A DNA stretch of 64,000 nucleotides from Candidatus Woesebacteria bacterium RIFCSPHIGHO2_01_FULL_38_10 (GTDB lineage Bacteria > Patescibacteriota > Microgenomatia > UBA8517), in NCBI GenBank assembly GCA_001792215.1, contig MGGC01000038.1:3555-67554 (forward strand), given 5' to 3'. Positions 14,581 through 49,568 of this stretch are shown one piece after another (within the stretch, counting starts at the first letter, position 1; the number at the start of each line of letters is the position of its first letter). The translations under genes and the position numbers were made by a program. The notes under the pieces are model-generated. The model did no database searches. It had not been told where the DNA came from and saw nothing but the letters and a program-made list of their open reading frames with translations.

Positions 14581-15052
14581 GTCTATTTCAGGATACAAAG
14601 AATTCGTAGCAAACCAGAAAGATTACCAAAGGAAATTGTCTAAAATTAAACACCTTTTACTCGACTAGGTGAGGCCTGTAAACACAGTGCGCCCGACGGG
14701 TGGTAGTCTGGACCCTTTTACAAGGCATGGAAAAAGACTCTGTCCACTATTCCTTGATCAATTTAAAGCCGTAGCTGTAGAAACTGACGAACAACTTATC
14801 CACCTTAGCCGATACATTCATCTTAATCCATATTCTTCACATGTTGTTAAAACAGTCGAAGAGCTGACAGAATACCTATGGTCGTCGTTTGAAGAATACA
14901 TCAAGCCGAAAAACAAAAACGTTTGTGATACAGGCATAATATTGTCTTTATTTAATCACAATGCCAAGCTAATCCACCTCCCAGGTGGATTCTCCATAAG
15001 GAAAATTAAGATTGATGATCTTTGGATTAGAAGTTATAATACTTATTACCAA
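14581..15052 (+). pseudogene. Remnant of a Y1 (IS200/RAYT-like, PF01797-type) tyrosine transposase, frameshifted and N-terminally truncated
   Basis: ORF 14669-15088 (GTG start) contains RYIHLNPYSSHVVKTVEELTEYLWSSFEEY, matching the YIHxNPV...YxWSS C-terminal block of REP-associated/IS200-like Y1 transposases. The upstream frame 14581-14668 reads ...KIKHLLLD* (possible HUH remnant). The ORF runs into tRNA-Val. Confidence 0.55.
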
Positions 15053-18280: not shown

Positions 18281-18481
18281 ATGCCAAAACAAAAAACTAA
18301 AAAATCAATTACCAGACGATTCAGAATTACCCCGAAGGGCAAAGTTATGAGAAGACAAGGCTTTAGACGTCATTTGAATGTAAAAAAAACATCTAAAAAG
18401 AAAAGAAGATTAAAAAGGATGGTAGAAACAAGAAAAGTTTACGCTAAAAAAATCAAGAAATTTTTGGGAGTTGGAAAATAA
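18281..18481 (+). CDS. rpmI: 50S ribosomal protein L35
   Basis: MPKQKTKKSITRRFRITPKGKVMRRQGFRRH is typical L35. Confidence 0.85.
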   Translation: MPKQKTKKSITRRFRITPKGKVMRRQGFRRHLNVKKTSKKKRRLKRMVETRKVYAKKIKKFLGVGK

Positions 18482-18577
18482 AATACTTCGCTAAGCGAAG
18501 TATTCCCTGAAGGGAAAAGTTTGTTCACTGCTTCGCCTCTTCCTCGCATCAGGATGCGAGGTGTTTGCGAAGTTTGA
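18482..18577. repeat. Structured ~96-nt intergenic repeat, copy 1 (forward)
   Basis: Begins right after the rpmI stop. Hairpins TACTTCGC-TAA-GCGAAGTA and CCTCGCATC-AG-GATGCGAGG, ends ...GCGAAGTTTGAA. Near-identical to copy 2 and to an inverted, diverged copy 3. Confidence 0.7.
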
Positions 18578-18707
18578 ATAGTCAATAAACTACCATGGAC
18601 TTACGCCCGATGGTATTTTGTAATACTCGCATACGCGAGACTTATTTGGAGCTTATATCCACAAGCTTACGCATGTGGTTTTACGCTCGCATTATAACCC
18701 AAAACCT

Positions 18708-19046
18708 ATGACTCGGGTAAAATCAGTAGCTCAAAAAAGACACAGGAAGATAAGGAAATTAACCAAAGGCTTTAAACAAGCCAGACGTAGACGCGTTAAA
18801 GCTGGCAAGGAAGCTCTGCTTCATGCCGGTCAATATGCATATATCGGAAGAAAACTTCGAAAAAGAGATTTAAGATCTTTATGGATCAAAAGACTAAATG
18901 CAGGAACCAGAGTACATGGTCTCAGCTACAGTAAATTTATTTCCAAACTAAAGAAAGCAAAGATTGAATTGGATAGAAAAATTCTTGCAGACATAGCTGT
19001 TAACGACCCATCTACTTTCGAAAAAATACTCCAAGAGGTAAAATAA
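18708..19046 (+). CDS. rplT: 50S ribosomal protein L20
   Basis: [40 protein letters not shown] is typical L20; track ORF 18675 starts on GTG, ATG at 18708. Confidence 0.85.
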
Positions 19047-19142
19047 AATACTTCGCTTAGCGAAGTATTTCCTGAAGGGAAAAGTTTGTTCACTGCTTCG
19101 CCTCTTCCTCGCATCAGGATGCGAGGTATTTGCGAAGTTTGA
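19047..19142. repeat. Structured intergenic repeat, copy 2 (forward)
   Basis: Begins right after the rplT stop and runs to 10 nt before the pheS ATG; three single-nt differences from copy 1 by my alignment. Confidence 0.7.
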
Positions 19143-19151
19143 AAAACCTCG

Positions 19152-20177
19152 ATGCGTGAAGAAATCCAAAATATCAGAAACGAAGCTTTAGCCCAATTAA
19201 TTGAGGCTAAGACCGCTGACGAAGTCGAACGACTTCGGATTATCTATCTTGGCAGGAATGGCAAAGTTAATAAGTTAACCAAAAAACTCAAAAGCCTCAA
19301 AACTCAAGAAAAAAAAGAGGTTGGAAGCTTGTTAAACGATACTAAAGATACCCTTATTTTTCAAATAGGAAAGCGAAAAAATCAGTTGAAGTATGGGGTT
19401 CGCCAATGGTTCGATCCGACCATTCCAGGAAAAAAACCTGTTATTGGCCATTTACACTTAATAACTCAGGCGATTGAGGAAATATCCAGTATCTTCGAAA
19501 AGATTGGTTTTACACGCGTTCGTTATCCTGAAGTAGAGTGGGACTATTACGCTTTTGAATCTCTGAACATGCCTAAAGATCATCCTGCAAGAGACGTGTG
19601 GGAAACTTTTTTCGTTGACAGCAAAAAAGATAAAAAATACGGTCAAATGGTCTTGACTCCTCATACATCATCAGGTCAGATCAGAGAAATGGAAAGGATA
19701 AAAAATCCGCCAATACGAATGATAAATATTGCTAAATGCTTCCGGCGCGAGCTTGATGCAAGCCATACTCCAATGTTTCATCAATTTGAAGGACTTGTAA
19801 TCGACAAAGATATTTCAATAGCGCATTTAAAAGGAACACTTGATTACTTTGCCAAAAACTATTTTGGTCCGGAGAGAAAAACCAGGCTAAGGCCATTTCA
19901 CTTTCAATTTACAGAACCTTCGTTCGAAGTAGATATTAGTTGCGGAATCTGCAAGGCAAAGGGGTGTAAGGTCTGTAAAGAAGGCTGGCTGGAACTTGGA
20001 GGAGCCGGAATGGTTTACCCGTCAGTTTTGAAAAATGGCGGTATTGACCCCCAAAAATATACCGGGTTTGCCTTTGGCTGGGGAGTGGAAAGGGTAGTTA
20101 TGATGAAACCTGGCTTAAACATTCCGGATTTAAGACTTTTATATAGTTCAGACTTAAGATTTTTAAGGCAATTCTGA
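19152..20177 (+). CDS. pheS: Phenylalanyl-tRNA synthetase alpha subunit
   Basis: Class II motifs FRRELDASHTPMFHQFEGLVIDKDI and GFAFGWGVERVVM. Confidence 0.9.
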   Translation: MREEIQNIRNEALAQLIEAKTADEVERLRIIYLGRNGKVNKLTKKLKSLKTQEKKEVGSLLNDTKDTLIFQIGKRKNQLKYGVRQWFDPTIPGKKPVIGHLHLITQAIEEISSIFEKIGFTRVRYPEVEWDYYAFESLNMPKDHPARDVWETFFVDSKKDKKYGQMVLTPHTSSGQIREMERIKNPPIRMINIAKCFRRELDASHTPMFHQFEGLVIDKDISIAHLKGTLDYFAKNYFGPERKTRLRPFHFQFTEPSFEVDISCGICKAKGCKVCKEGWLELGGAGMVYPSVLKNGGIDPQKYTGFAFGWGVERVVMMKPGLNIPDLRLLYSSDLRFLRQF

Positions 20178-26794: not shown

Positions 26795-28819
26795 ATGAAA
26801 CTTGATTCACCGGTTGCTAAGTTACCTTTAGTCGGACCTGTGTATGTCAGGAGACTGGAAAAACTCGGAATTCAAACAGTCGAGGATTTAATCCATCACA
26901 TTCCTCATAGATATAACGATTACAGCCACATTGCCAAAATTGCTCATGTGCAGGCAGGAGAAACAGCAACAATTCGGGCAGAACTTAAAGAATTGAAAAA
27001 TTTATATACGAAGCACGGCAAAAAAATCCAGGCTGGCATAGTTTCCGATAATTCTGGGAATATGCAGGTTATCTGGTTCAACCAACCATTTCTGGCTCGG
27101 AATCTTAAGAAAGGAAGTCATTTATCACTTTCGGGAAAGGTAGATTTTTTCAACCGAGAAAGAGCGCTTCTATCACCCGATTACGAATATTTTAATCCCG
27201 GTTACCAAACCTTACACACAGGCCGGCTTGTTCCAGTTTACCCTGAAACAGCCCAAATTTCTTCAAAATGGCTTCGGGCAAGAATAAATTATGTATTACA
27301 AAACATTGGTCATCTGGAAGAATTTCTCCCGGACTTTTTGCTCAAACAAAATAATTTGTTAGATTTTAATACAGCAATAAACTCAATCCACTTCCCGCAA
27401 AAACTTGAGGATGCTCAAAAAGCACGTGTGCGCCTTTCCTTTGATGAACTCTTATTCCTGCAACTGAAAAACCAATACAAAAAAGAAAATTGGAATCAAA
27501 ACAAAGCTATTCACAACTTAAGAATAGATAAAAAAATTTACAAAGAATTCACAAACTCCCTCCCTTTTAATCTTACACTATCACAAAAAAAGGCAATCGG
27601 TGAGATTTTTTCTGATCTTCAAAAAGAAACTCCCATGAACAGGCTTCTGGAAGGCGATGTGGGTTCGGGCAAAACAGTTGTTGCTGCTACTTGCGCCTTT
27701 TGTTCGTTCATAAACGGTTTTCAATCCGTATTCATGGCACCAACACAGATACTTGCAAATCAACATTACAAGACCCTACAAGAAATTTTTGCTAAGTTCA
27801 AAGTGCGTGTGACACTGATAACTTCAGCCGGTGTCAAAAGCGACTTCGGAAAGACTGATATTTATGTTGGAACTCATGCTTTAATTCACAAAAAGGTTAA
27901 TTTCGAAAATGTAGCCATAGTTGTAATTGACGAGCAACACAGATTCGGTGTAGAACAAAGGGCACATTTGGTTAAAAAGTCAGGCAAAAAATCCCACTCT
28001 CCCCATGTCCTGACTATGACAGCCACACCCATTCCAAGAACAATCGCTTTAACTTTTTACGGAGACTTAGATTTATCCACGCTTGATGAACTTCCGAAAG
28101 GTCGGCAAAAAATAACCACTTGGATAGTACCACCATTAAAAAGAGAGGCAGCTTACAACTGGATAAAAGAACAAATTAAAAAGGAAAGGGTGCAGGGCTT
28201 TATAATTTGCCCACTAATAGAAGAATCGCAAGTTGAGTCAATGAGACAAGTTAAAGCTGCAACAGTTGAATATGAGAAATTGTGCAAGGTATTTGCAAAT
28301 TCAGTTAAACTCGGGCTTCTTCACGGTAGATTAAAGGCAAAAGAAAAAGACACAACCATGGACAAATTTAGGGCGGGGGACATTGACATTCTAGTTTCAA
28401 CACCAGTTGTAGAAGTAGGAATAGATGTTGCCAACGCTACTTTAATGATAATTGAGGCAGCGGAGAGATTTGGGCTGGCACAACTTCATCAGTTAAGAGG
28501 AAGAATAGGTAGAGGAAAGAAAAAATCGTACTGTCTTTTATTTACCTCAAGAAAGTCAAAAACCACAAATCAAAGGTTAAAAGCCCTAAAAGAAAATAAA
28601 TCCGGTTTTGAGCTTGCCGAACTTGACCTTAAGATGCGCGGCCCTGGAGAGGTTTTTGGTACCCGCCAGCACGGATTTCCTGAGCTTAAAATTGCCTCCT
28701 GGAATGATAGCGGAGTGATAAAACTGACCAAAAAGGTTGCTGAGGATGTTATAGGAAACAAAACCCGATACCCAAAACTAATTGAAAAACTTGAAAGCAA
28801 GGAAATAATCCTGAACTAA
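26795..28819 (+). CDS. recG: ATP-dependent DNA helicase RecG
   Basis: Wedge-domain N-terminus; helicase motifs LEGDVGSGKTVVAA (Walker A), VIDEQHRFGV (DEQH), QLRGRIGRG. Confidence 0.85.
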   Translation: MKLDSPVAKLPLVGPVYVRRLEKLGIQTVEDLIHHIPHRYNDYSHIAKIAHVQAGETATIRAELKELKNLYTKHGKKIQAGIVSDNSGNMQVIWFNQPFLARNLKKGSHLSLSGKVDFFNRERALLSPDYEYFNPGYQTLHTGRLVPVYPETAQISSKWLRARINYVLQNIGHLEEFLPDFLLKQNNLLDFNTAINSIHFPQKLEDAQKARVRLSFDELLFLQLKNQYKKENWNQNKAIHNLRIDKKIYKEFTNSLPFNLTLSQKKAIGEIFSDLQKETPMNRLLEGDVGSGKTVVAATCAFCSFINGFQSVFMAPTQILANQHYKTLQEIFAKFKVRVTLITSAGVKSDFGKTDIYVGTHALIHKKVNFENVAIVVIDEQHRFGVEQRAHLVKKSGKKSHSPHVLTMTATPIPRTIALTFYGDLDLSTLDELPKGRQKITTWIVPPLKREAAYNWIKEQIKKERVQGFIICPLIEESQVESMRQVKAATVEYEKLCKVFANSVKLGLLHGRLKAKEKDTTMDKFRAGDIDILVSTPVVEVGIDVANATLMIIEAAERFGLAQLHQLRGRIGRGKKKSYCLLFTSRKSKTTNQRLKALKENKSGFELAELDLKMRGPGEVFGTRQHGFPELKIASWNDSGVIKLTKKVAEDVIGNKTRYPKLIEKLESKEIILN

Positions 28820-34700: not shown

Positions 34701-35237
34701 TCAATACTGGCGTAACAATATTTTGGTCATGGCTTGATATTTTGCTCCCTCCACACCCCTCAAATTTGAAAATTCTGCCTCAACTGATACATTAACCGAG
34801 TAAGGTACCTTACCCTCTTTCTCAAAACAGGTAAACATTTCAGGACAGTTGGTAATTCTCACATCCGAACTGGTCAACCTGGCTGAGCCTGAAGCAATAT
34901 AATAATTCTGGCAAGAAAAGTAAGCACTCATCCCGAATTCGTCTGTATAATCAAGTCGATTAGTTGGAATTCCTATACAATTTCGAAATTTTCTGGCACC
35001 TCTTAAAGATCTTTCCACAACATTCATGGCATATTCGACATTTTCTTTAACCTTGCCGACTGACTCACTTTTTTTAGAATTACGGATACTTATGGCAATT
35101 GATTGGGTAACTAAGATACTGACAATAGAAAAGACAAGTACAACAATCAACATCTCAACCAAGGAAAAACCACAATTTAACTTTTGTCTGAATAGTAGCA
35201 AATCAGGACTTTTAATATTTGGCATTACTTTTCTCAT
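34701..35237 (-). CDS. Minor pilin / pseudopilin (prepilin-type N-terminus)
   Basis: Class III signal ...NCG|FSLVEMLIVVLVFSIV. Confidence 0.6.
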   Translation of the reverse strand: MRKVMPNIKSPDLLLFRQKLNCGFSLVEMLIVVLVFSIVSILVTQSIAISIRNSKKSESVGKVKENVEYAMNVVERSLRGARKFRNCIGIPTNRLDYTDEFGMSAYFSCQNYYIASGSARLTSSDVRITNCPEMFTCFEKEGKVPYSVNVSVEAEFSNLRGVEGAKYQAMTKILLRQY

Positions 35238-35686
35238 CTATTCCAGTTTGTAAAATCAGTAACAGATACAACCTGATGGCTTCCTTGCCCATCAGTCCAA
35301 CTGACAATTACTTCTACACGGATAGTATCATTTGAATCAACTACCGTCTGAAAGGTTAAATTAACAGATCTTGATAAGGCAGTCCCCAATATGGGATTGG
35401 CAGAACTCCAATTCAAACTTCCTAAATTTATGTTGGTTGCAGGAGTTCTTGAGGCTAAATTACTCCAATCTGAATCTCTTTCCTCCCTTATCCACTCCAT
35501 AGCCTCCTGGGCGAACTTGGTTGCCAGGGCATTATTTTTAGAAAAGTTTTCATTAGCAACGGTTTTTGTGGTCAGAGAAACCACTCCGATAAGTATTAAC
35601 GAAAGAATGGCAATTGAAAAAATTACTTCAAACAAAGATTGCCCGAAAGGTAAGAATGTCTTTTTTTTGAAAATAATAAAACTCAT
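35234..35686 (-). CDS. Minor pilin / pseudopilin
   Basis: ...LPFG|QSLFEVIFSIAILSLIL. Confidence 0.6.
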   Translation of the reverse strand: MSFIIFKKKTFLPFGQSLFEVIFSIAILSLILIGVVSLTTKTVANENFSKNNALATKFAQEAMEWIREERDSDWSNLASRTPATNINLGSLNWSSANPILGTALSRSVNLTFQTVVDSNDTIRVEVIVSWTDGQGSHQVVSVTDFTNWNR

Positions 35687-36228
35687 AATATTTCTCCTGA
35701 ACGTCTAACGGTCACTGTTATGCCTGGAACACCTGAACCTGGAAAATTAAGAGTTATACCTATTTGTGCACCAGGAATATCAACCCCTCTGGCTAAAACC
35801 TTAAAAGTAAATACACTTCCTCCGATTGAAGACATATCAATTCCTTCTGGCAGGTTAACTGCCTTTAGGAAAACTCTTGTAGCCGTACCTAAAGTTGGTC
35901 CACAAAACGCGTCAATTTGATAAGAGTCCCTTCCTCCTGGATAATTATCAGTATCTAGTTCAAATCTATAACCTTGCAGAATCTGGGTTTCGCAGGCATT
36001 ACCAGGAAACTCCTGAGGTTTTCTTCCTGAGATCGCCATTTCTTGAGCTAGTCTTAAGTCAGCTTTAATCAGCCTATCGGCTGTTTTAAGATATTCCCGC
36101 TTTTGGAAATCCCGATAATTTGCAAAACCAACACCAAAAAGAAGAGTCATTGTTACTACCACAATCAAAAGTTCAATCAATGTAAAGCCATTGCTTTTAG
36201 AGATCTTTCGGATAATCTTTTTTTGCAT
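35683..36228 (-). CDS. Minor pilin / pseudopilin (FimT/GspH-like)
   Basis: MQKKIIRKISKSNG|FTLIELLIVVVTMTLL. I moved the start to the internal Met, which removes the overlap with the next pilin gene (track start 36297). Confidence 0.6.
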   Translation of the reverse strand: MQKKIIRKISKSNGFTLIELLIVVVTMTLLFGVGFANYRDFQKREYLKTADRLIKADLRLAQEMAISGRKPQEFPGNACETQILQGYRFELDTDNYPGGRDSYQIDAFCGPTLGTATRVFLKAVNLPEGIDMSSIGGSVFTFKVLARGVDIPGAQIGITLNFPGSGVPGITVTVRRSGEIL

Positions 36229-36269
36229 TGGAAAAAAACATTTCTTGAAACTCAATTTAGAAAAACTCC

Positions 36270-36719
36270 TTAAGGACTCAACAGCTGGTATCGGCAAGGA
36301 GTGGGATCACAGGTTACACATCCAGTGAACGTGTCTGAAGAGTCCTCAAGATGAGAGTACAAATTATACGAGGTCGAAGGAACCCCGCTTGGACAATAAA
36401 CATACCTTGCCAAAGTCGAAGGGTCCCCGGGCACACTTCTTAGGTAAATATTGGTTACCCCAGTACAGGTTGCCTGAAGTTGAGACCCTGGAGCTGGAAG
36501 ACTGGCCGGATATTGATTGCAGTCAGCTTTATAAATTTCCAATGCGGCGCGGATGGTTTCTAAATCAGCTTTCCTTCTTGCATCGCGACCAGACCTTCTG
36601 GCATTTTGCATCGCAAAAATGGATATACCGGTTAAAACTGCAATTATGGAAATGACTATTAGAAGCTCAATAAGAGTAAAGCCATAACTTATATTTGATA
36701 TTTTTTTCATAATGGACAA
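36270..36719 (-). CDS. Type IV pilin
   Basis: MSIMKKISNISYG|FTLIELLIVISIIAVL; ARRSGRDARRKADL block; 6 Cys in the C-terminal domain. Confidence 0.65.
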   Translation of the reverse strand: MSIMKKISNISYGFTLIELLIVISIIAVLTGISIFAMQNARRSGRDARRKADLETIRAALEIYKADCNQYPASLPAPGSQLQATCTGVTNIYLRSVPGDPSTLARYVYCPSGVPSTSYNLYSHLEDSSDTFTGCVTCDPTPCRYQLLSP

Positions 36720-37243
36720 ACCGGACCTCCATTGACCAGACTATCGGCAGTCCTTCCGTCTGAACAAACCACAAAGAAAAGAGTCGCTCCTGCATCATTT
36801 CCCTGTTCTAAGGTCCCCCATAAAACATATTGAGTCAGATCCGATCTGATCTGATAATTAAAGGGGTTACCCCTGGAATCATCGGGGCAGGTAGTCAAGT
36901 TCAGTAGGGTAGTTCCGCAATTTGCAGGAGTTGCCAAATTTCCCAAAGCAACGAAAAAATTACCCCGATTTCTGGCTGCGTATGTTTCCATAGCAACCTG
37001 ATATTGTTTTATGTCGCTTCTTTTCCTTGCGTCTCTTGCTCTTCTTTGAGATGCGGGGAATCTCATTAAAAGGATTGTGGCCAATCCGCCAAGAATGGCT
37101 ATAACTATCAAAAGTTCAATCAATGTAAAACCAAAATTTTTAATCGGAAAACCTAATTTCCAACTAATCAAGTTTGGATTTGTCTCCCACTTTTCAGAAT
37201 TTTCAGTGCTGAGGGAATTTTGAGATTTGAGATTTAAGTTCAT
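36707..37243 (-). CDS. Type IV pilin (long leader)
   Basis: ...KNFG|FTLIELLIVIAILGG, SQRRARDARKRSDI block, Cys pairs; unusually long 32-aa leader as translated. Confidence 0.6.
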   Translation of the reverse strand: MNLNLKSQNSLSTENSEKWETNPNLISWKLGFPIKNFGFTLIELLIVIAILGGLATILLMRFPASQRRARDARKRSDIKQYQVAMETYAARNRGNFFVALGNLATPANCGTTLLNLTTCPDDSRGNPFNYQIRSDLTQYVLWGTLEQGNDAGATLFFVVCSDGRTADSLVNGGPVCPL

Positions 37244-37275
37244 AAAGACAGATATCTATTTATAACACGGACTCA

Positions 37276-37902
37276 TCACTTTTTTCCAGCTTTCTCCCTT
37301 TCAGCAAGCTCATTCTCATACTCTTCAATAGATTTATCAAGTGGAGTTTCAGCAAAAGACTTGCCATAACTACAAATTCTGCCTCCACAATTTAAATTTC
37401 TCCCCACAATCTTATAATTATAACCGTCTTCATCCTCTCCACCCTCCAGGTTAGAATATAGCTGAAATCTTTTGCTATTAGATAAATAATAGTAAGATAT
37501 TCCATCATTCTTTTGAGGATCCGCAAAAAGGGTTTTGAGATAGACTTTTTCGCTTGAGCCGAATAAACCAAGATCAGTTAAGGAATCCTTTCCCCATTCA
37601 CAGGGCCTTAATCCCTGAAAAAGAAGATTATAGTTAGGTACCTCAGCCTCTTTTAAAAGGGCAATAACCTGATAAAAATTGTCGGCAGGACATGCCTTTA
37701 TCTTGGCGTCCCCAGAAGGAGGAAAAAAACCAAAGTCCGATCTGTACTCATGAAGCGCATCCGAAATTGTCCCCAAATCCGCTTTTCTTTGAGCATCTCT
37801 AGCTCTCCTCAAAGCCAGCCGCATATTAATAAAGGTCACGCTAAAAGTTACTAAAAGAATAATTCCTATACCAATATACTCATTTTTTGAAAAAGGTTTC
37901 AT
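37276..37902 (-). CDS. Pilin-like protein with signal-anchor instead of a prepilin cleavage motif
   Basis: Shares the LRRARDAQRKADLGTISDAL block and Cys-containing C-terminal domain with neighbouring pilins, but the N-terminus MKPFSKNEYIGIGIILLVTF lacks G|F...E. Confidence 0.45.
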   Translation of the reverse strand: MKPFSKNEYIGIGIILLVTFSVTFINMRLALRRARDAQRKADLGTISDALHEYRSDFGFFPPSGDAKIKACPADNFYQVIALLKEAEVPNYNLLFQGLRPCEWGKDSLTDLGLFGSSEKVYLKTLFADPQKNDGISYYYLSNSKRFQLYSNLEGGEDEDGYNYKIVGRNLNCGGRICSYGKSFAETPLDKSIEEYENELAEREKAGKK

Positions 37903-37912
37903 TGCCTGGTAA

Positions 37913-38740
37913 TTATTGTAAAAAGGGGAAAAGTAAATTTTTTAAATAATCTCCCCAAAATAAAGTTAGAAAAAAACCTATAACCAAAAATGGTCCAAAA
38001 GCAATTGGTTTACCTAATTTGGCTTTACCTGTTAAAAGTAAGCTGACTCCGAGAGCAGCTCCTATCCAAAAGCTCAAAAATATCCATACCAGTGTACCTG
38101 GCCATCCCAGTGAAACCCCTCCGCTAAGAACCAGTTTACTATCTCCCAGTCCCATTCCCTTACCTTTGGTTATTAAATTAAGAATCAGGAAGACAAAGGC
38201 CGTTGCAAGGGAAACGAAAAGGTTCTTATAAAAGTTATCGGCGGGGGAGAGTAAGTTTACAGCAAGAAAAATTGAAAAAAGAAAAAAAACAACTTTGTCC
38301 GGAATAACTTGATGTTCAAAATCTGTGACAAAAATTGTAATCAATAAGCTTATTGCCAGAAACAAAAAGGGGGGTGCTATAGAACCTAAGTGTAATTTCC
38401 AAAAACAAATATCCTGCAAGGAAGCTTCATCTAAACTTGCGCTACAGTTAAAAGAATAAAAATAGTAAATAAGGAAAAATAAAATCGCTGTTGAAATTTC
38501 TATCAGGGGATAGCGAAGGGAAATTTTCTTTCGGCAACTCCTGCACTTACCCTTTAAAAGAATGTAGGAAAGAAGAGGAATATTGTCATTCCAGGCAATT
38601 GCCTTCTTACATTCAGGACAAAAAGACCTTCCTTTTTTTATACTTTTTCCCAAAGGTATTCGATAGGTGATCGACGATAAAAAGGACCCTATAATAAGAC
38701 CAGAAACTAAAACTAAAAGATAGGGATAAGCTCCAAACAT
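37913..38740 (-). CDS. pilD: Prepilin peptidase (A24 family)
   Basis: N-terminal TM, Zn-binding CPECKKAI...CRSCRK, multi-TM body with catalytic-Asp regions. Confidence 0.85.
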   Translation of the reverse strand: MFGAYPYLLVLVSGLIIGSFLSSITYRIPLGKSIKKGRSFCPECKKAIAWNDNIPLLSYILLKGKCRSCRKKISLRYPLIEISTAILFFLIYYFYSFNCSASLDEASLQDICFWKLHLGSIAPPFLFLAISLLITIFVTDFEHQVIPDKVVFFLFSIFLAVNLLSPADNFYKNLFVSLATAFVFLILNLITKGKGMGLGDSKLVLSGGVSLGWPGTLVWIFLSFWIGAALGVSLLLTGKAKLGKPIAFGPFLVIGFFLTLFWGDYLKNLLFPFLQ

Positions 38741-38873
38741 ATTTAACTATAATATACTGGTCGTACAGAGCTTTGCAATCTTTGAGGCAATGAGGGAGGC
38801 ATTATAAATGAGAAAGTACCAGAAAACCCTTTTGCAAGATTTTTACCTGGTACTTTCAATCCAACCTAACAGT

Positions 38874-39425
38874 TTAATTAACAAAGGCTTGACCACCTAC
38901 GGCAAACGCCGGTTCAGCTTGGCTACAAACTATACCGCCTCGACCCAAGACTGTGTCAAAAACCACCCAAGCAACAGCAGGTGCTGTACATCTTGAATTA
39001 TTCGAACCAGATTCCAACCTGGAATAGATAATTCCGTTATTGGGAGGAGTTGCTCCGTCACCATCGTAACAGTACCCGTTCTGAATACCTCGACCCGCAG
39101 CTGAACAAGCAGCCGTTCCTGTAATACTGTAAGCAAGTGCTCCTGGCGCTGTGGCAATCTCTCCAGCAGTAACCATAGAGGTAACCCAAGTATTATTTTC
39201 AGTTACATAATCACCTTCATGTGAGGTGCCATAAGCCTGAAAGGCGTGCCCCAACTGAGTTACCGAGGAAGTTCTCCCGGCATCTCTTGTTCTTGCCAAC
39301 TGTTCTTGAGGATTAATGGCAACCAAGATAACCACTGCCAAAACTCCGATAATAGCAATTACAATTAAAAGCTCAATTAAAGTAAAACCTCTTCTTATCC
39401 GGGCAGTCATAAATTTTTGTTTCAC
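38874..39425 (-). CDS. Type IV pilin (major pilin candidate)
   Basis: MKQKFMTARIRRG|FTLIELLIVIAIIGVLAVV; first pilin after pilB-pilT-pilC; GC-richer; ~100-bp putative promoter gap upstream. Confidence 0.7.
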   Translation of the reverse strand: MKQKFMTARIRRGFTLIELLIVIAIIGVLAVVILVAINPQEQLARTRDAGRTSSVTQLGHAFQAYGTSHEGDYVTENNTWVTSMVTAGEIATAPGALAYSITGTAACSAAGRGIQNGYCYDGDGATPPNNGIIYSRLESGSNNSRCTAPAVAWVVFDTVLGRGGIVCSQAEPAFAVGGQAFVN

Positions 39426-40776: not shown

Positions 40777-41841
40777 CTATTTTGAGGACCTGACCAATCT
40801 ATTCAATTCTTCAGGCCTCAGGGAGTAAGATTGAGCAACTTCCAGGGCTACTTTTCCCTTCTTAACTAGATTTGCCAAAGACATTTCCAAAGTATTCATA
40901 CCGACTTCGGTTGAGGTTTGCAAGACATTATCAATCTGATGAGTTTTTCCGTCTCTAATGGTTGTTTTTATTGCTGAGGTTCCAAGCATAACCTCATAAG
41001 CAACCACTCTTTTACCGGTAATGGATGGAATCAGTCTCATGGAAAATACTACCTCAATAACATTCGAAAGCTGAAGTCTAACCTGCTCCTGTTGCTCTTC
41101 GGGAAAAACATCAACAATCCTGTCAATTGTCTGGGCTGCTGAATTTGTGTGAAGGGTGGCGAATACAAGATGTCCTGTTTCGGCAACGGTTAGCGCTGAG
41201 GCTATGGTTTCATAATCTCTCATTTCGCCGACCAAAACCACATCCGGATCTTCTCTTAACGTACTTCTTAAGGCTATCTGCCAAGAGTGTGTGTCAAAAC
41301 CCATTTCCCTTTGAGAGATTATCGAATTTACAGGCTTAAATACAAACTCGATTGGATCTTCGATAGTCACAATATGCGTATAGCGTTGCTCGTTTATTTC
41401 ATTAAGCATCGATGCCAAAGTAGTTGATTTACCATGACCGGTCGGTCCGGTCACCAAAATAAAACCCTGCTTGAGTCCAGTAAATGTGTGAAGAAGCTTG
41501 GGTAAACCCAGATCGTCAATCTTAGGAATCTCCATGGGAATCTTTCTAAATGCAATCGCCAATGACCCCTTTTGGGTATAAGTATTTACCCTGAAACGTG
41601 CTTTTTGACTAAAGGGTAAAGAAAAGTCGATTTCCTTATTAACGGTCAGCCTGTCGAACTGTTCTGAAGAGAGAATTTCTTTAACATATTTGTTGACTAC
41701 ATCAGGAGTAATAATCTCCTCAGAAGGAATCGGGCTTAGTTGCCCTTCTATTCGTAAATAAGGGGCAATACCCGATATAATGTGAAGGTCGGATGCTTCT
41801 CTGTCAATAGTAATTTGCAAAAGATCTTTTATATCAATCAT
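40777..41841 (-). CDS. pilT: Twitching-motility retraction ATPase PilT
   Basis: Walker A VTGPTGHGKSTT, Asp box, His box, 354 aa. Confidence 0.85.
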   Translation of the reverse strand: MIDIKDLLQITIDREASDLHIISGIAPYLRIEGQLSPIPSEEIITPDVVNKYVKEILSSEQFDRLTVNKEIDFSLPFSQKARFRVNTYTQKGSLAIAFRKIPMEIPKIDDLGLPKLLHTFTGLKQGFILVTGPTGHGKSTTLASMLNEINEQRYTHIVTIEDPIEFVFKPVNSIISQREMGFDTHSWQIALRSTLREDPDVVLVGEMRDYETIASALTVAETGHLVFATLHTNSAAQTIDRIVDVFPEEQQEQVRLQLSNVIEVVFSMRLIPSITGKRVVAYEVMLGTSAIKTTIRDGKTHQIDNVLQTSTEVGMNTLEMSLANLVKKGKVALEVAQSYSLRPEELNRLVRSSK

Positions 41842-41853
41842 GCTTTCTGTTAA

Positions 41854-43578
41854 CTACTCCTGAGCCACTCTAAGAACTTCTTCAATGGTAGTAATCCCTT
41901 GCAAAACTTTAAGATATCCATCCTCTTTCATAGTAATCATTCCTTCTGTTTTCGCCTGCCTCTCAATATCGGCAGACGATGCATTTTCCAATATGAGCCT
42001 ACTTATTTTTTCAGAAACAGGCAATACTTCAAAAATACCCACTCTTCCGTAATACCCACTTTTCCCGCAGTCAGTACATCCTTCCCCTTTATAAAACTTT
42101 ATATCTTTCGTCTTGGGTAATAAAGATCCAAGAACACTTCTTACCTCCTCAAAAATTTCCAAGTCAGGCTCATAAGAAATTTTACATTCTTCATGAATCT
42201 TTCTAACCACTCTTTGGGCAGCAATAGCTGTCATCGAAGATGCCAAAAGGTATGGCTCGGCCTTCATGTCCAAAAGTCTGGGAAGGGCGCCTGAGGCGTC
42301 ATTGGTGTGAAGGGTGGAAAATACCAAGTGCCCTGTAAGAGATGCTTGAATCGCCAGATCAGTTGTTTCCTGGTCCCTGATCTCTCCAACCAAAATAATA
42401 TTGGGATCTTGTCTTAAAAAAGATCTCAAACCCGATGCGAAAGTAAGACCCGCCTGAGGATTAACCTGAACTTGATTTACTCCGGCAATTTTGTATTCAA
42501 CCGGATCTTCAAGCGTCACTATATTAACCTTGGAAGTGTTAATAGTTTGCATTATCGAATACAACGTTGTTGTCTTTCCCGAACCTGTCGGGCCACAAAT
42601 CAAAATAATCCCGTGGGGGCGCATAATTGCATCCTGAAGATTTTTTAAAGCCCTTCCACTTAATCCCAACTCGGGGAGAGTCGGAATTCCTCCCGTTTTT
42701 TTCAATAGCCTCATCACAACTTTTTCACCTAAAGTTGTGGGGAGCGTGGAAACTCTCAGATCAACCTCTTGATCCTCGCTTTTAAAATTAAACCTGCCAT
42801 CCTGTGGTAACCTTTTCTCATCAATCTTCATACTTGAAAGAATTTTAATTCTGGAAACCAAAGCATCCCGCAAGTCCTTGGGAATTGTCAACTTTTCCTG
42901 CAAGATACCATCAATTCGGTAGCGAACTCTGGTAAAATTTTCTTGAGGTTCGATGTGAACATCTGATGCTCTTGCTTTTACCGCAAAAGATAAAATATGG
43001 GTAACGATTTCTGCAACTTTCTCCTCTCTTATAACACCTGTTTTGAAAATATCAAAAGTTTTTACTTCTCCGTCTCTGGAAACCTCCTTAAGCGCCTCTG
43101 TTACCTCTCTTGCTAAAGATGTCGTATATCCGGCTGAAATTAAGGTTTCCACTTTTGAAGGTTCAGCTGCATAAGGTTTAACAATATATCCTGTCTTCTG
43201 CTCGACGAACTCTGTGGCAGTTAAATCCAGTGGGTCTGCCATTGCTAAATTCAACTGCTTCGTTTGCATATCGACTGAGAAAGGAAAAATCTTAAATCTC
43301 TCAGCAACATCCTGAGAAAGGAGAGTTAATGCTTCAGAAGAAATCGGAATTGTTGTTAAATCGATATAGGGAAAGTTATAAAGTTCGGCCCTTGCTTTGA
43401 CTAAAGCTTCTTCGCTAACAAGCTTTCTTTCTTTAATTATTTCTTCCTGAAGCTTACCGGTTTGAATCTCGGTTAATTTTATCTGCTTTAACTTTTCTTC
43501 ATTTAAAGCTCCCTGCGACAAAAGAATATCAGCCAGAGATTTAGTCTCATTGGAATTCGATTTTACCTGGACAGTCAT
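41854..43578 (-). CDS. pilB: Type IV pilus extension ATPase PilB (GspE family)
   Basis: Walker A LICGPTGSGKTTT; tetracysteine motif CTDCGKSGYYGR; N-terminal GSPII domain. Confidence 0.85.
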   Translation of the reverse strand: MTVQVKSNSNETKSLADILLSQGALNEEKLKQIKLTEIQTGKLQEEIIKERKLVSEEALVKARAELYNFPYIDLTTIPISSEALTLLSQDVAERFKIFPFSVDMQTKQLNLAMADPLDLTATEFVEQKTGYIVKPYAAEPSKVETLISAGYTTSLAREVTEALKEVSRDGEVKTFDIFKTGVIREEKVAEIVTHILSFAVKARASDVHIEPQENFTRVRYRIDGILQEKLTIPKDLRDALVSRIKILSSMKIDEKRLPQDGRFNFKSEDQEVDLRVSTLPTTLGEKVVMRLLKKTGGIPTLPELGLSGRALKNLQDAIMRPHGIILICGPTGSGKTTTLYSIMQTINTSKVNIVTLEDPVEYKIAGVNQVQVNPQAGLTFASGLRSFLRQDPNIILVGEIRDQETTDLAIQASLTGHLVFSTLHTNDASGALPRLLDMKAEPYLLASSMTAIAAQRVVRKIHEECKISYEPDLEIFEEVRSVLGSLLPKTKDIKFYKGEGCTDCGKSGYYGRVGIFEVLPVSEKISRLILENASSADIERQAKTEGMITMKEDGYLKVLQGITTIEEVLRVAQE

Positions 43579-48742: not shown

Positions 48743-48810
48743 GTCCATCCCGGTGGCTACCAATTCAAATCCTGTCCCTAAACTTTAAGTTATTGTATAA
48801 TCTCAATTTA

Positions 48811-48913
48811 TTCAAACTTTGCGAATACCTCGCATCTTGATGCAAGGATGAAGCAAAGGATTGAACAAACTTGTCCGTAGGAATACTTCGTAGCTTGCTA
48901 CGAAGTAGTTTAT
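48811..48913. repeat. Structured intergenic repeat, copy 3 (inverted, diverged)
   Basis: Reverse complement aligns with copies 1 and 2. Both hairpins are kept, with compensatory changes in hairpin A (TACTTCGTAG-CTTG-CTACGAAGTA); ends 2 nt before the ATG of the LmbE-like gene. Confidence 0.6.
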
Positions 48914-48914
48914 T

Positions 48915-49568
48915 ATGAAAAAAGAGAAATTAGTCTGTGTCTTTGCTCACCCCGATGATGAGTCCTTTGGTCCATCCGGAACCATAGCAAAATTTGCCGA
49001 TAGGGGAGAGGTTTATATAATTTGCGTTACCAACGGGAATGATAAAACCAATGGCAGAATAAAAAATCTTTCCCAAAAAAGAAAGAAAGAACTTAAAAAA
49101 GCTGCAACAATCTTGGGAGTGAAAAAAGTCTTTTTCTTGGGCTACGAAGACGGGGAATTGCGAAACGATCTCTATCATGAGGTGGCAGCAAAAATTGAAA
49201 AAATTCTTCTCAAAATTAAGCCTGACACTCTTATGACCTTTGAACTAAGGGGAATTTCCGGCCATATCGATCATGTCTTTTGTTCAATGGTTACAAGCTA
49301 TCTTTTTCAAAAGTTACCGTTTGTGAGAAAACTTCTTTATGCTGTAACTACGAAAGATGTCTCTGATAATATGAAAAATTATTTCATCTATTTTCCCGAC
49401 GGTTATGAAAAGTCTGAAGTCGATTTAGTCGTCGACGTTTCAAAATATTGGAGCCAAAAAATTCAATCAGTCAAAGCCCATAAATCGCAAAAAAAGGACG
49501 TTGAACAAATCCTTGCCTGGCTAAAGTCCACTCCCAAAGAAGAGTATTTCCTAGTAAAATCAAAATAG
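48915..49568 (+). CDS. PIG-L/LmbE-family N-acetylglucosaminyl deacetylase
   Basis: VFAHPDDESFGPSGT zinc-binding motif and downstream HIDH. Confidence 0.75.
   Translation: MKKEKLVCVFAHPDDESFGPSGTIAKFADRGEVYIICVTNGNDKTNGRIKNLSQKRKKELKKAATILGVKKVFFLGYEDGELRNDLYHEVAAKIEKILLKIKPDTLMTFELRGISGHIDHVFCSMVTSYLFQKLPFVRKLLYAVTTKDVSDNMKNYFIYFPDGYEKSEVDLVVDVSKYWSQKIQSVKAHKSQKKDVEQILAWLKSTPKEEYFLVKSK

Follow-up and report, generated by a model that had tools for sequence, protein, structure and literature searches.

The three ~100-nt repeats found in a 64,000-nt stretch of DNA (the window) from Candidatus Woesebacteria RIFCSPHIGHO2_01_FULL_38_10, a genome from Rifle groundwater, are probably copies of a non-coding, non-autonomous mobile DNA element. 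The copies are insertions missing from relatives, their stems are maintained by compensatory change, and the family to which they belong contains diverged subfamilies in one genome and members in other phyla. On the best reading, the element is most like REPs or the IS200/IS605-type PATEs, which are miniature, gene-less IS200/IS605 derivatives moved in trans by the Y1 HUH transposase TnpA.

Two of the copies lie in a run of + strand genes in the order thrS-infC-rpmI-(copy 1)-rplT-(copy 2)-pheS-pheT. A repeat search of the window recovered them as a pair (family D2; 18475-18578 versus 19040-19143, 97% identity) separated by 565 nt, and alignment of their bodies revealed three substitutions, the number counted in an earlier reading of the sequence without database searches (the sequence-only reading). 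That reading had also described a third, inverted and diverged copy; the repeat search matched copy 3 in inverted orientation to copies 1 and 2 at 84% identity over 68 to 69 nt (partner, 48808-48876), and a covariance model aligned it from end to end (48808-48914, - strand). Copies 1 and 2 begin directly after the rpmI and rplT stop codons, as first read (stops end at 18481 and 19046; copies begin at 18482 and 19047). Copy 3 is oriented opposite to its neighbors in the ORF list, a 109-aa ORF and a PIG-L/LmbE gene (PIG-L by Pfam match), both on the + strand. The features of the three copies were as follows.

18477..18481, + strand: target pentamer of copy 1, AATAA, holding the rpmI stop TAA (18479-18481; the rpmI ORF ends at 18481)
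18482..18581, + strand: copy 1 (115 and 97.6 bits, E ~1e-20, covariance models; fold z = -6.4), with its body at 18482-18576 and its 3' pentamer AATAG at 18577-18581
18484..18502, + strand: h1 ("hairpin A") of copy 1, TACTTCGC-TAA-GCGAAGTA, then TT (MFE fold and pair counts)
18504..18515, + strand: middle hairpin of copy 1, TCCC-TGAA-GGGA (MFE fold)
18521..18581, + strand: long bulged hairpin of copy 1, with outer stems TTCA/TGAA and CTTCGC/GCGAAG around h2
18542-18561, + strand: h2 ("hairpin B") of copy 1, CCTCGCAT-CAGG-ATGCGAGG, then TGTTT
19042..19046, + strand: target pentamer of copy 2, AATAA, holding the rplT stop (19044-19046)
19047..19146, + strand: copy 2, with its 3' pentamer AAAAA at 19142-19146 and the pheS ATG at 19152
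19049-19067, 19069-19080, 19086-19146, and 19107-19126, + strand: h1, middle hairpin, long hairpin, and h2 of copy 2
48808..48909, - strand: copy 3 (108-118 bits, covariance models)
48884-48907, 48828-48847, and 48808-48812, - strand: h1, h2, and 3' pentamer AATAA (TTATT on the + strand) of copy 3
48910..48914, - strand: target pentamer of copy 3, AATAA (TTATT on the + strand), adjoining the PIG-L/LmbE ATG at 48915

Covariance-model E values for the three window copies ranged from 1e-19 to 1e-22. Models built from four copies (R1) and from seven members (R2) and run over the full window with filters off found no copies beyond these three. The 20-mer of hairpin B had three sites in the window, all within copies (0.00 expected in shuffles). 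A fourth partial copy at 28283-28310 (family D6) was rejected as chance; it lies inside the recG coding region and was missed by both covariance models.

Exact-pattern scans of genome and metagenome collections returned few matches. Beyond the window, the same-genome search covered the 10 kb flanking each window end, and a total of 5 copies were found in the ~84 kb of source genome scanned. Three members outside the window were delimited.

L015, 291-399: subfamily 1 copy in a metagenome of the same series as the source
L032, 1117-1229: subfamily 2 copy in the source genome, outside the window, after mreB (model R1)
L034, 3831-3942: subfamily 2 copy in the source genome, outside the window, between a lactamase_B gene and dnaB (model R1)

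One contig of the source genome bears the sample prefix of the L015 metagenome. The L015 copy follows the full plan with another h1 stem (CATCGCAA/TTGCGATG) and another middle hairpin, and it splits a DUF4143-like ORF on the opposite strand. Removal of the element and one AATAA yielded ...EVDFVLYGPRGLIAIEVKRGS... (...YGPRG-LIAIEVKR...), with an unbroken DUF4143 profile match (positions 131-159). Model R1 also recovered full-length subfamily 3 relatives on contigs of Daviesbacteria (L009) and Elusimicrobia (L010, 12 nt past the rpmA stop), as well as a weaker subfamily 3 match on a Bacteroidota contig (L013), and a one-hairpin mini version was present on a Collierbacteria contig (L011). The family is not confined to the three copies known to the sequence-only reading: two more lie in the same genome, and others occur in L015 and in other phyla. 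A match on a deltaproteobacterial contig (L012) was a bare hairpin of 18 bits, probably due to chance, and nothing relevant was found in viral contig, plasmid, and phage collections. A protein database search with the antisense reading frame across copy 1 revealed no spurious ORFs over other copies.

In the predicted MFE fold of each window copy, h1 forms the left hairpin, a small hairpin follows in the middle, and h2 is the tip of a long bulged hairpin. The folds were stronger than those of shuffled sequences (z = -5.7 to -8.0; 0 of 200 shuffles as good), and the strand of the sequence-only reading folded better than its complement in copy 1 (-44.2 versus -38.6 kcal/mol) and in copy 3 (-40.1 versus -31.6 kcal/mol). 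The h2 of copy 3 keeps a T-G wobble, which is a C-A mismatch on the opposite strand. Both hairpins had been placed inside the CTTCGC/GCGAAG pairing; in the MFE fold this was the case for hairpin B, but hairpin A and the small middle hairpin are separate stem-loops 5' of that stem. The h1 of copy 3 has T-A in place of C-G and two extra pairs relative to copies 1 and 2, in agreement with the claim that hairpin A was kept there by compensatory substitution. The middle hairpin occupies the same place with other sequences in other members (TCC/GGA in copy 3 and CTTTT/AAAAG in L015).

Across the seven aligned members, h1 and h2 fell on one strand in all seven, with GTAT(T) after each, and 8 of the 18 h1/h2 pairs carried double changes. 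Paired cells in h1/h2 made up 92% of the total, versus 75% in shuffles (0 of 500) and 30 to 47% when the partners were slid. An independent RNAalifold prediction contained both hairpins and an enclosing stem, and compensatory changes affected 10 of its 22 pairs. The fold and covariation checks proposed with the sequence-only reading thus came out in favor of its view that the structure itself is under selection, since the stems covary across subfamilies. In subfamily 1 (the window copies plus L015), the h2 position is taken by the CCTCGCAT-CARG-ATGCGAGG-TAT hairpin (CCTCGCAT...ATGCGAGGTAT). Subfamilies 2 and 3 have this hairpin, or one much like it, as h1 instead, and their h2 sequences differ (e.g., CCCCAATAC/GTATCGGGG and CCATGTAGC/GCTACTTGG). 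The same module is therefore accepted at both positions.

Among the copies with defined ends, AATAA stood directly 5' of five of six, and four of the six also ended in AATAA (background frequency, 0.0029 per position). The pentamer was found immediately 5' of copies 1, 2, and 3, L015, L034, and the L011 mini version and at the 3' ends of copy 3, L015, L032, L034, L009, and the L011 mini version, so that it flanked copy 3, L015, L034, and the L011 mini version on both sides. At rpmI, rplT, and the L015 ORF, AATAA is host derived. Taken with the end counts, this marks the stop codon as part of the host target rather than of the element. The left and right pentamers were unequal in copy 1 (AATAA/AATAG), copy 2 (AATAA/AAAAA), and L032 (TATAT/AATAA); subfamily 3 had AATGA on the left, and L009 had AATAA on the right. 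The cases of L032 and subfamily 3 indicate that the two pentamers need not match. The right-hand AATAA is either an element-borne motif or a 5-bp duplication, and L032 and subfamily 3 lean against simple duplication. Lys-stop gene ends (AAA TAA) commonly supply AATAA in this AT-rich genome, and such a target therefore accounts for copies 1 and 2 sitting right after the rpmI and rplT stops.

Three Woesebacteria loci of 20 kb each were compared at the same operon, where the spacers in the window measure 226 nt (rpmI-rplT) and 105 nt (rplT-pheS).

L017 (L20 83% identical): rpmI-rplT spacer of 17 nt; rplT-pheS spacer of 51 nt
L019 (L20 77% identical): rpmI-rplT spacer of 34 nt; rplT-pheS spacer of 7 nt
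L021 (L20 74% identical): rpmI-rplT spacer of 16 nt; rplT-pheS spacer of 469 nt, with an unrelated insert

Covariance models found no family members in these 20-kb loci. In the closest relative, L017, rpmI ends with the homologous GGAAAATAG without the element, and in L019, rplT ends with GGTAAAATAA as in the window, with pheS 7 nt later. The short, element-free spacers identify the copies as lineage-specific insertions, and the check for insertion polymorphism suggested earlier accordingly turned up three relatives without the element at both junctions. Among the matches listed, contigs encoding the identical L20 or LmbE protein all carried the copies at the same spacing. The sequence-only reading had taken the A/T run containing TAA for an end of the element that doubles as the stop codon, which does not hold: the gene ends AAAATAA/AAAATAG are also present in the element-free relatives, so the AATAA at the stop codon is host sequence and the element starts after it.

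Putative parent enzymes were sought among the Y1-type sequences of the genome. The remainder of the rpmI-rplT spacer (~18584-18700, - strand) aligned to both the left and the right ends of IS200 copies from the same aquifer and is therefore an IS200-derived miniature element. The ends of the IS200 copies in L023-L031, L011, and L036 (GATTATAAC.../...GGAGAATCATA), defined from multi-copy relatives and a second assembly of the same IS, were unrelated to h1/h2. In L011, the genome-collection scan had found hairpin B downstream of an IS200 tnpA, at a distance of 55 nt; IS200 parentage by this route was rejected, given that the mini element is outside the IS and the ends are unrelated. In the second assembly of this IS, another flank follows straight after ...ATCAT, so the adjacency does not reflect a common end. 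One intact Y1/RAYT-like gene (225 aa) was located at L032:7899-8576, 1.4 kb upstream of the window start. Its product carries an HYH motif and an RYIHINP tyrosine motif and matched Pfam Y1_Tnp (27.8 bits; cutoff, 23); the best NCBIfam match was REP_Tyr_transpos (E 1.4e-8), at 34.7 bits, below the curated cutoff of 80, and there was no sequence match in the PDB. Positions 14747-14953 contain a relic of a paralogue. On either side of the intact gene stand CCCAC...GTGGG hairpins unlike h1/h2; the nearest family member is 6.7 kb away, and the CCCAC...GTGGG motif is not dispersed in the window. The idea that h1/h2 flank this gene as cognate sites was refuted, as CACCC/GGGTG-type hairpins stand there instead; hairpins of this type also flank the L021 orthologue and the window relic. 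No autonomous element with the ends of the family was found. With IS200 ends unrelated and the flanks of the RAYT-like gene different, the cognate enzyme can only be inferred. Readings as attC sites or Helitron-like elements were set aside, since, judged by eye, the terminal motifs do not fit the consensus.

Two other routes of mobility were weighed against these observations. It is unlikely that the repeats are classical MITEs moved by a DDE transposase, in which case AATAA would be a target-site duplication of 5 bp, arising at a strongly preferred AT-rich site, and the hairpins would be incidental. A length of ~100 nt without an ORF would suit such elements, as would the matching pentamers around copy 3, L015, L034, and the L011 mini version, but those of L032 are unequal, and the AATGA on the left in subfamily 3 differs from the AATAA on the right in L009. 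Local alignment of the first 25 nt to the reverse complement of the last 25 nt detected an inverted match of 8 nt between the termini (ACTTCGC) in copies 1 and 2 only (P ~0.007) and no terminal inverted repeat in copy 3, L015, L032, L034, or L009 (P = 0.07 to 0.65); as terminal inverted repeats are not family-wide, the "MITE-like" label given earlier applies only loosely. The conserved parts are the same-strand hairpins and the GTAT(T) tag rather than the termini, and no DDE transposase with these ends was found. Rather improbable, too, is a bona fide REP/REPIN family kept by the RAYT-like tyrosine transposase upstream of the window. The motifs and the Y1_Tnp and REP_Tyr_transpos matches of this protein speak for it, as does the occurrence of short, mostly extragenic palindromes with a conserved tag beside the stem foot, but the NCBIfam score falls short of its cutoff, the gene is flanked by unrelated hairpins, and L021 has the orthologue with no element copy within 20 kb. 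Furthermore, the hairpin modules are direct rather than inverted doublets, and the tag is a 3' GTAT(T) rather than a 5' GTAG or CGTC (PMC3733652).

Origins that do not involve mobility fit the data less well still. Host selection for a structured RNA (an attenuator, terminator, mRNA stabilizer, L20/L35 autoregulatory leader, or small RNA) is a very unlikely explanation, even though copies 1 and 2 fold strongly on the transcribed strand, the stems covary, and three members closely follow genes for ribosomal proteins (rpmI, rplT, and rpmA in L010). At gathering scores, Rfam identified only two tRNAs in the whole window, and at the copies it gave no family at gathering scores or at E values up to 10 (best there, E > 1). 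On the sense strand of copies 1 and 2, UUUGAAU follows the long hairpin, which has no U tract, and a terminator scan flagged only the 5-bp middle hairpin; the lack of a U tract may explain how these copies are tolerated inside the operon. In the antisense orientation only (the + strand for copy 3), h1 plus UUUAUU (TTTATT in the DNA) was flagged as a terminator; in copy 3, this sequence, which looks like an intrinsic terminator and contains the complement of h1, ends 7 nt before the LmbE ATG. As predicted from the sequence, this signal is possibly a side effect of copy 3. The "sRNA-like" alternative raised in the sequence-only reading was not borne out, as there was no Rfam match and no associated promoter or terminator signature. 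The element is absent from the same junctions in three relatives, family members occur in both orientations relative to neighboring genes, and one copy lies inside an ORF, which together rule out a gene-specific leader. The earlier preference for a small mobile or structural element over such a leader, based on orientation independence, agrees with these empty sites, unrelated contexts, and intragenic copy. A local duplication or gene conversion around rplT, combined with a chance third similarity and no mobility, is extremely improbable; copies 1 and 2 are close together and 97% identical, as it would have them, but copy 3 is inverted, 30 kb away, and matched by the model over its full length, further contigs and other phyla contain related copies, and the boundaries at AATAA are precise.

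For the mobile element that we favor, a tentative mechanism, plausible though somewhat short of probable, is that an HUH/Y1 transposase (IS200/IS605 or RAYT type), provided in trans, uses h1 and h2 as recognition sites; the left AATAA would then be the cleavage and target motif, and the AATAA at the terminus would serve for cleavage on the right. The element probably inserts directly 3' of a host AATAA and bears the same pentamer at its own 3' end; in the proposed scheme, h1/h2 would be recognized by a transposase acting on single-stranded DNA. Any effect on rpmI-rplT-pheS expression, for example through hairpins at mRNA 3' ends, would be a by-product and not the reason for the existence of the element. 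A point against this reading is that identical end pentamers fit a 5-bp DDE target-site duplication equally well. Relative to GC skew, which changes sign near 20 kb, the hairpin strand was the G-rich strand for the three subfamily 1 copies and the opposite strand for the two subfamily 2 copies, a comparison that involves few copies. More speculatively, and with the balance against it, the cross-phylum two-hairpin family (Woesebacteria, Daviesbacteria, Collierbacteria, Elusimicrobia, and Bacteroidota) could be an undescribed single-strand transposon parasite with an exchangeable hairpin-plus-GTATT module at both ends, AATAA as target and terminal cleavage motif, an HUH/Y1 enzyme in trans, and a preference for the Lys-stop ends of highly expressed genes in streamlined CPR genomes.

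Bacteria of the Candidate Phyla Radiation (CPR) have small, streamlined genomes that are usually described as poor in repeats. No paper mentioning RAYTs in connection with the CPR came up in full-text literature searches, and Patescibacteria and miniature inverted-repeat elements appeared together only in two incidental co-mentions. Here, the core infC-rpmI-rplT-pheST operon took up three small mobile insertions, namely, two copies of the element and one IS200-derived miniature element; hairpin modules related to those of the element are also found in distant phyla. Intercistronic spacers of unusual length are explained by such repeats, which may break short-read assemblies and can be mistaken for regulatory RNAs. 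The sharp AATAA site and the exchangeable hairpin module offer a concrete starting point for testing whether an HUH/Y1 enzyme moves the family and, if so, which one.

Elements of the IS200/IS605 group have same-strand stem-loops at both ends, a transposon-adjacent target motif, a transposon-encoded terminal motif, and no target duplication (PMC10055086). Like PATEs, the repeats are small and without an ORF, carry two same-strand end hairpins instead of terminal inverted repeats, insert immediately 3' of a fixed pentanucleotide, bear a related motif on the right, and pair in a strand-asymmetric manner, and the genome also holds IS200-type sequences. Unlike PATEs, they have no tnpA-bearing element with matching ends among those found, the IS200 elements recovered having unrelated ends; they also possess a small third hairpin and an outer stem that encloses h2; and the left hairpin adjoins the junction (h1 begins 2 to 4 nt from it, versus ~19 nt for the hairpin of IS608).

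REPs are imperfect palindromes of 20 to 40 nt with an unpaired 5' GTAG or CGTC tag at one end (PMC3733652). The family shares with REPs and REPINs short hairpins that carry a brief conserved tag at the foot of the stem; a location that is mostly intergenic, often just downstream of genes, and occasionally inside genes; and the presence of a RAYT-like gene in the genome. It differs in that its hairpins, of 20 to 24 nt, carry the tag 3' of the stem, its two modules are direct and not arranged as the inverted doublets of REPINs, the RAYT-like gene is flanked by other hairpins, the density is low, and the AATAA insertion site is sharply defined.

Structured bacterial MITEs include the Neisseria Correia, pneumococcal BOX/RUP, enterobacterial ERIC, and Bacillus cereus bcr1 elements. 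The defining features of those families are terminal inverted repeats or long imperfect palindromes, together with duplications of the TA or TTTAT type. The repeats resemble these in a length of ~100 to 150 nt, a strong fold, AT-rich sites near gene ends, cotranscription with neighbors, and modular subfamilies, but they are without family-wide terminal inverted repeats. As with the L20 leader and other cis-regulatory RNAs of infC-rpmI-rplT, a structured RNA is present in the same operon; in contrast to the L20 leader, it has no Rfam match, is absent at the same junctions in relatives, and occurs at unrelated loci and in unrelated orientations. Considered against all of these systems, the repeats appear to form a family that has not been described before, belonging with the small non-autonomous hairpin elements of the PATE/REP/MITE type.

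The source-genome sequence beyond the upstream end of the window (L032), the operon locus of a Woesebacteria relative (L021), and the window itself contained genes or gene remnants similar to REP-associated tyrosine transposases (RAYTs), as follows.

L032:7899-8576, minus strand: intact gene for a Y1/HUH protein of 225 aa, ~1.4 kb beyond the upstream end of the window
L021:3944-4612: orthologue of this RAYT-like gene in the relative
Window 14747-14953, plus strand: RAYT-like relic of 69 aa, with similarity to the RAYT-like protein
Window 14690-14702 and 14974-14988: hairpins flanking the relic, CGCCCGACGGGTG and CCACCTCCCAGGTGG

The 225-aa protein contained HYH and RYIHINP motifs and passed the Pfam Y1_Tnp threshold (27.8 bits), and its top NCBIfam match was REP-associated tyrosine transposase, with a score below the cutoff. 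CCCAC...GTGGG hairpins were present on either side of its gene, and CACCC...GGGTG hairpins flanked the orthologue in the relative. The translated relic was 46% identical over 69 aa to residues 127 to 195 of the RAYT-like protein and appears to be a decayed paralogue of the gene, still bracketed by its two hairpins. Its position is the site of the intact gene in the relative, with tRNAs and a DUF5665 gene downstream.

Five copies of the two-hairpin repeat were seen in ~84 kb of the source genome. Contigs from two independent short-read assemblies (L043 and L046) begin 30 nt before the ATG of the LmbE gene, within the left hairpin of copy 3, so that the interior of this copy is a break point in both. 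Such breaks would be expected of a repeat also located elsewhere in the genome, and they hint that the genome has further copies beyond these five.

Other repeats were present in the window. A 44-nt motif occurred five times at 35138-39399 (spacings, 449 to 2,257 nt; 64 to 82% identity to the reference copy at 36156-36199), probably as segments repeated among paralogous genes. Two direct-repeat pairs (41143-41257 and 42301-42415; 77 to 81% identical) were both spaced 1,158 nt apart, and this equal spacing suggests tandem paralogous genes. GC skew was positive over 1 to 20 kb and negative over 20 to 64 kb, and the cumulative skew therefore peaked at ~20000, shortly downstream of copies 1 and 2; the peak may mark a replication terminus or origin, or it may arise from the strand distribution of genes.

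Further inserts were found at the ribosomal protein genes.

L021:10343-10811: different insert of 469 nt at the rplT-pheS junction of the relative
Window 18584-18700, minus strand: second miniature element, filling the rest (~120 nt) of the rpmI-rplT spacer

The 469-nt insert contained several G+C-rich hairpins and a 71-aa ORF; the rplT-pheS junction, which holds copy 2 in the window, has therefore been struck independently in another lineage. The second miniature element, which adjoins copy 1, is unrelated to the ~100-nt repeat family. Its reverse complement aligned with IS200 copies of the same aquifer, and also with a Collierbacteria IS200, both at their left end (...TTATAA...TAAAACC-hairpin-GAT...) and at their right end (...AAACC-hairpin with GTAAG loop...). 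Aligned to both ends and lacking tnpA, it is an IS200-type PATE, a gene-less miniature derivative of the IS200/IS605 family.
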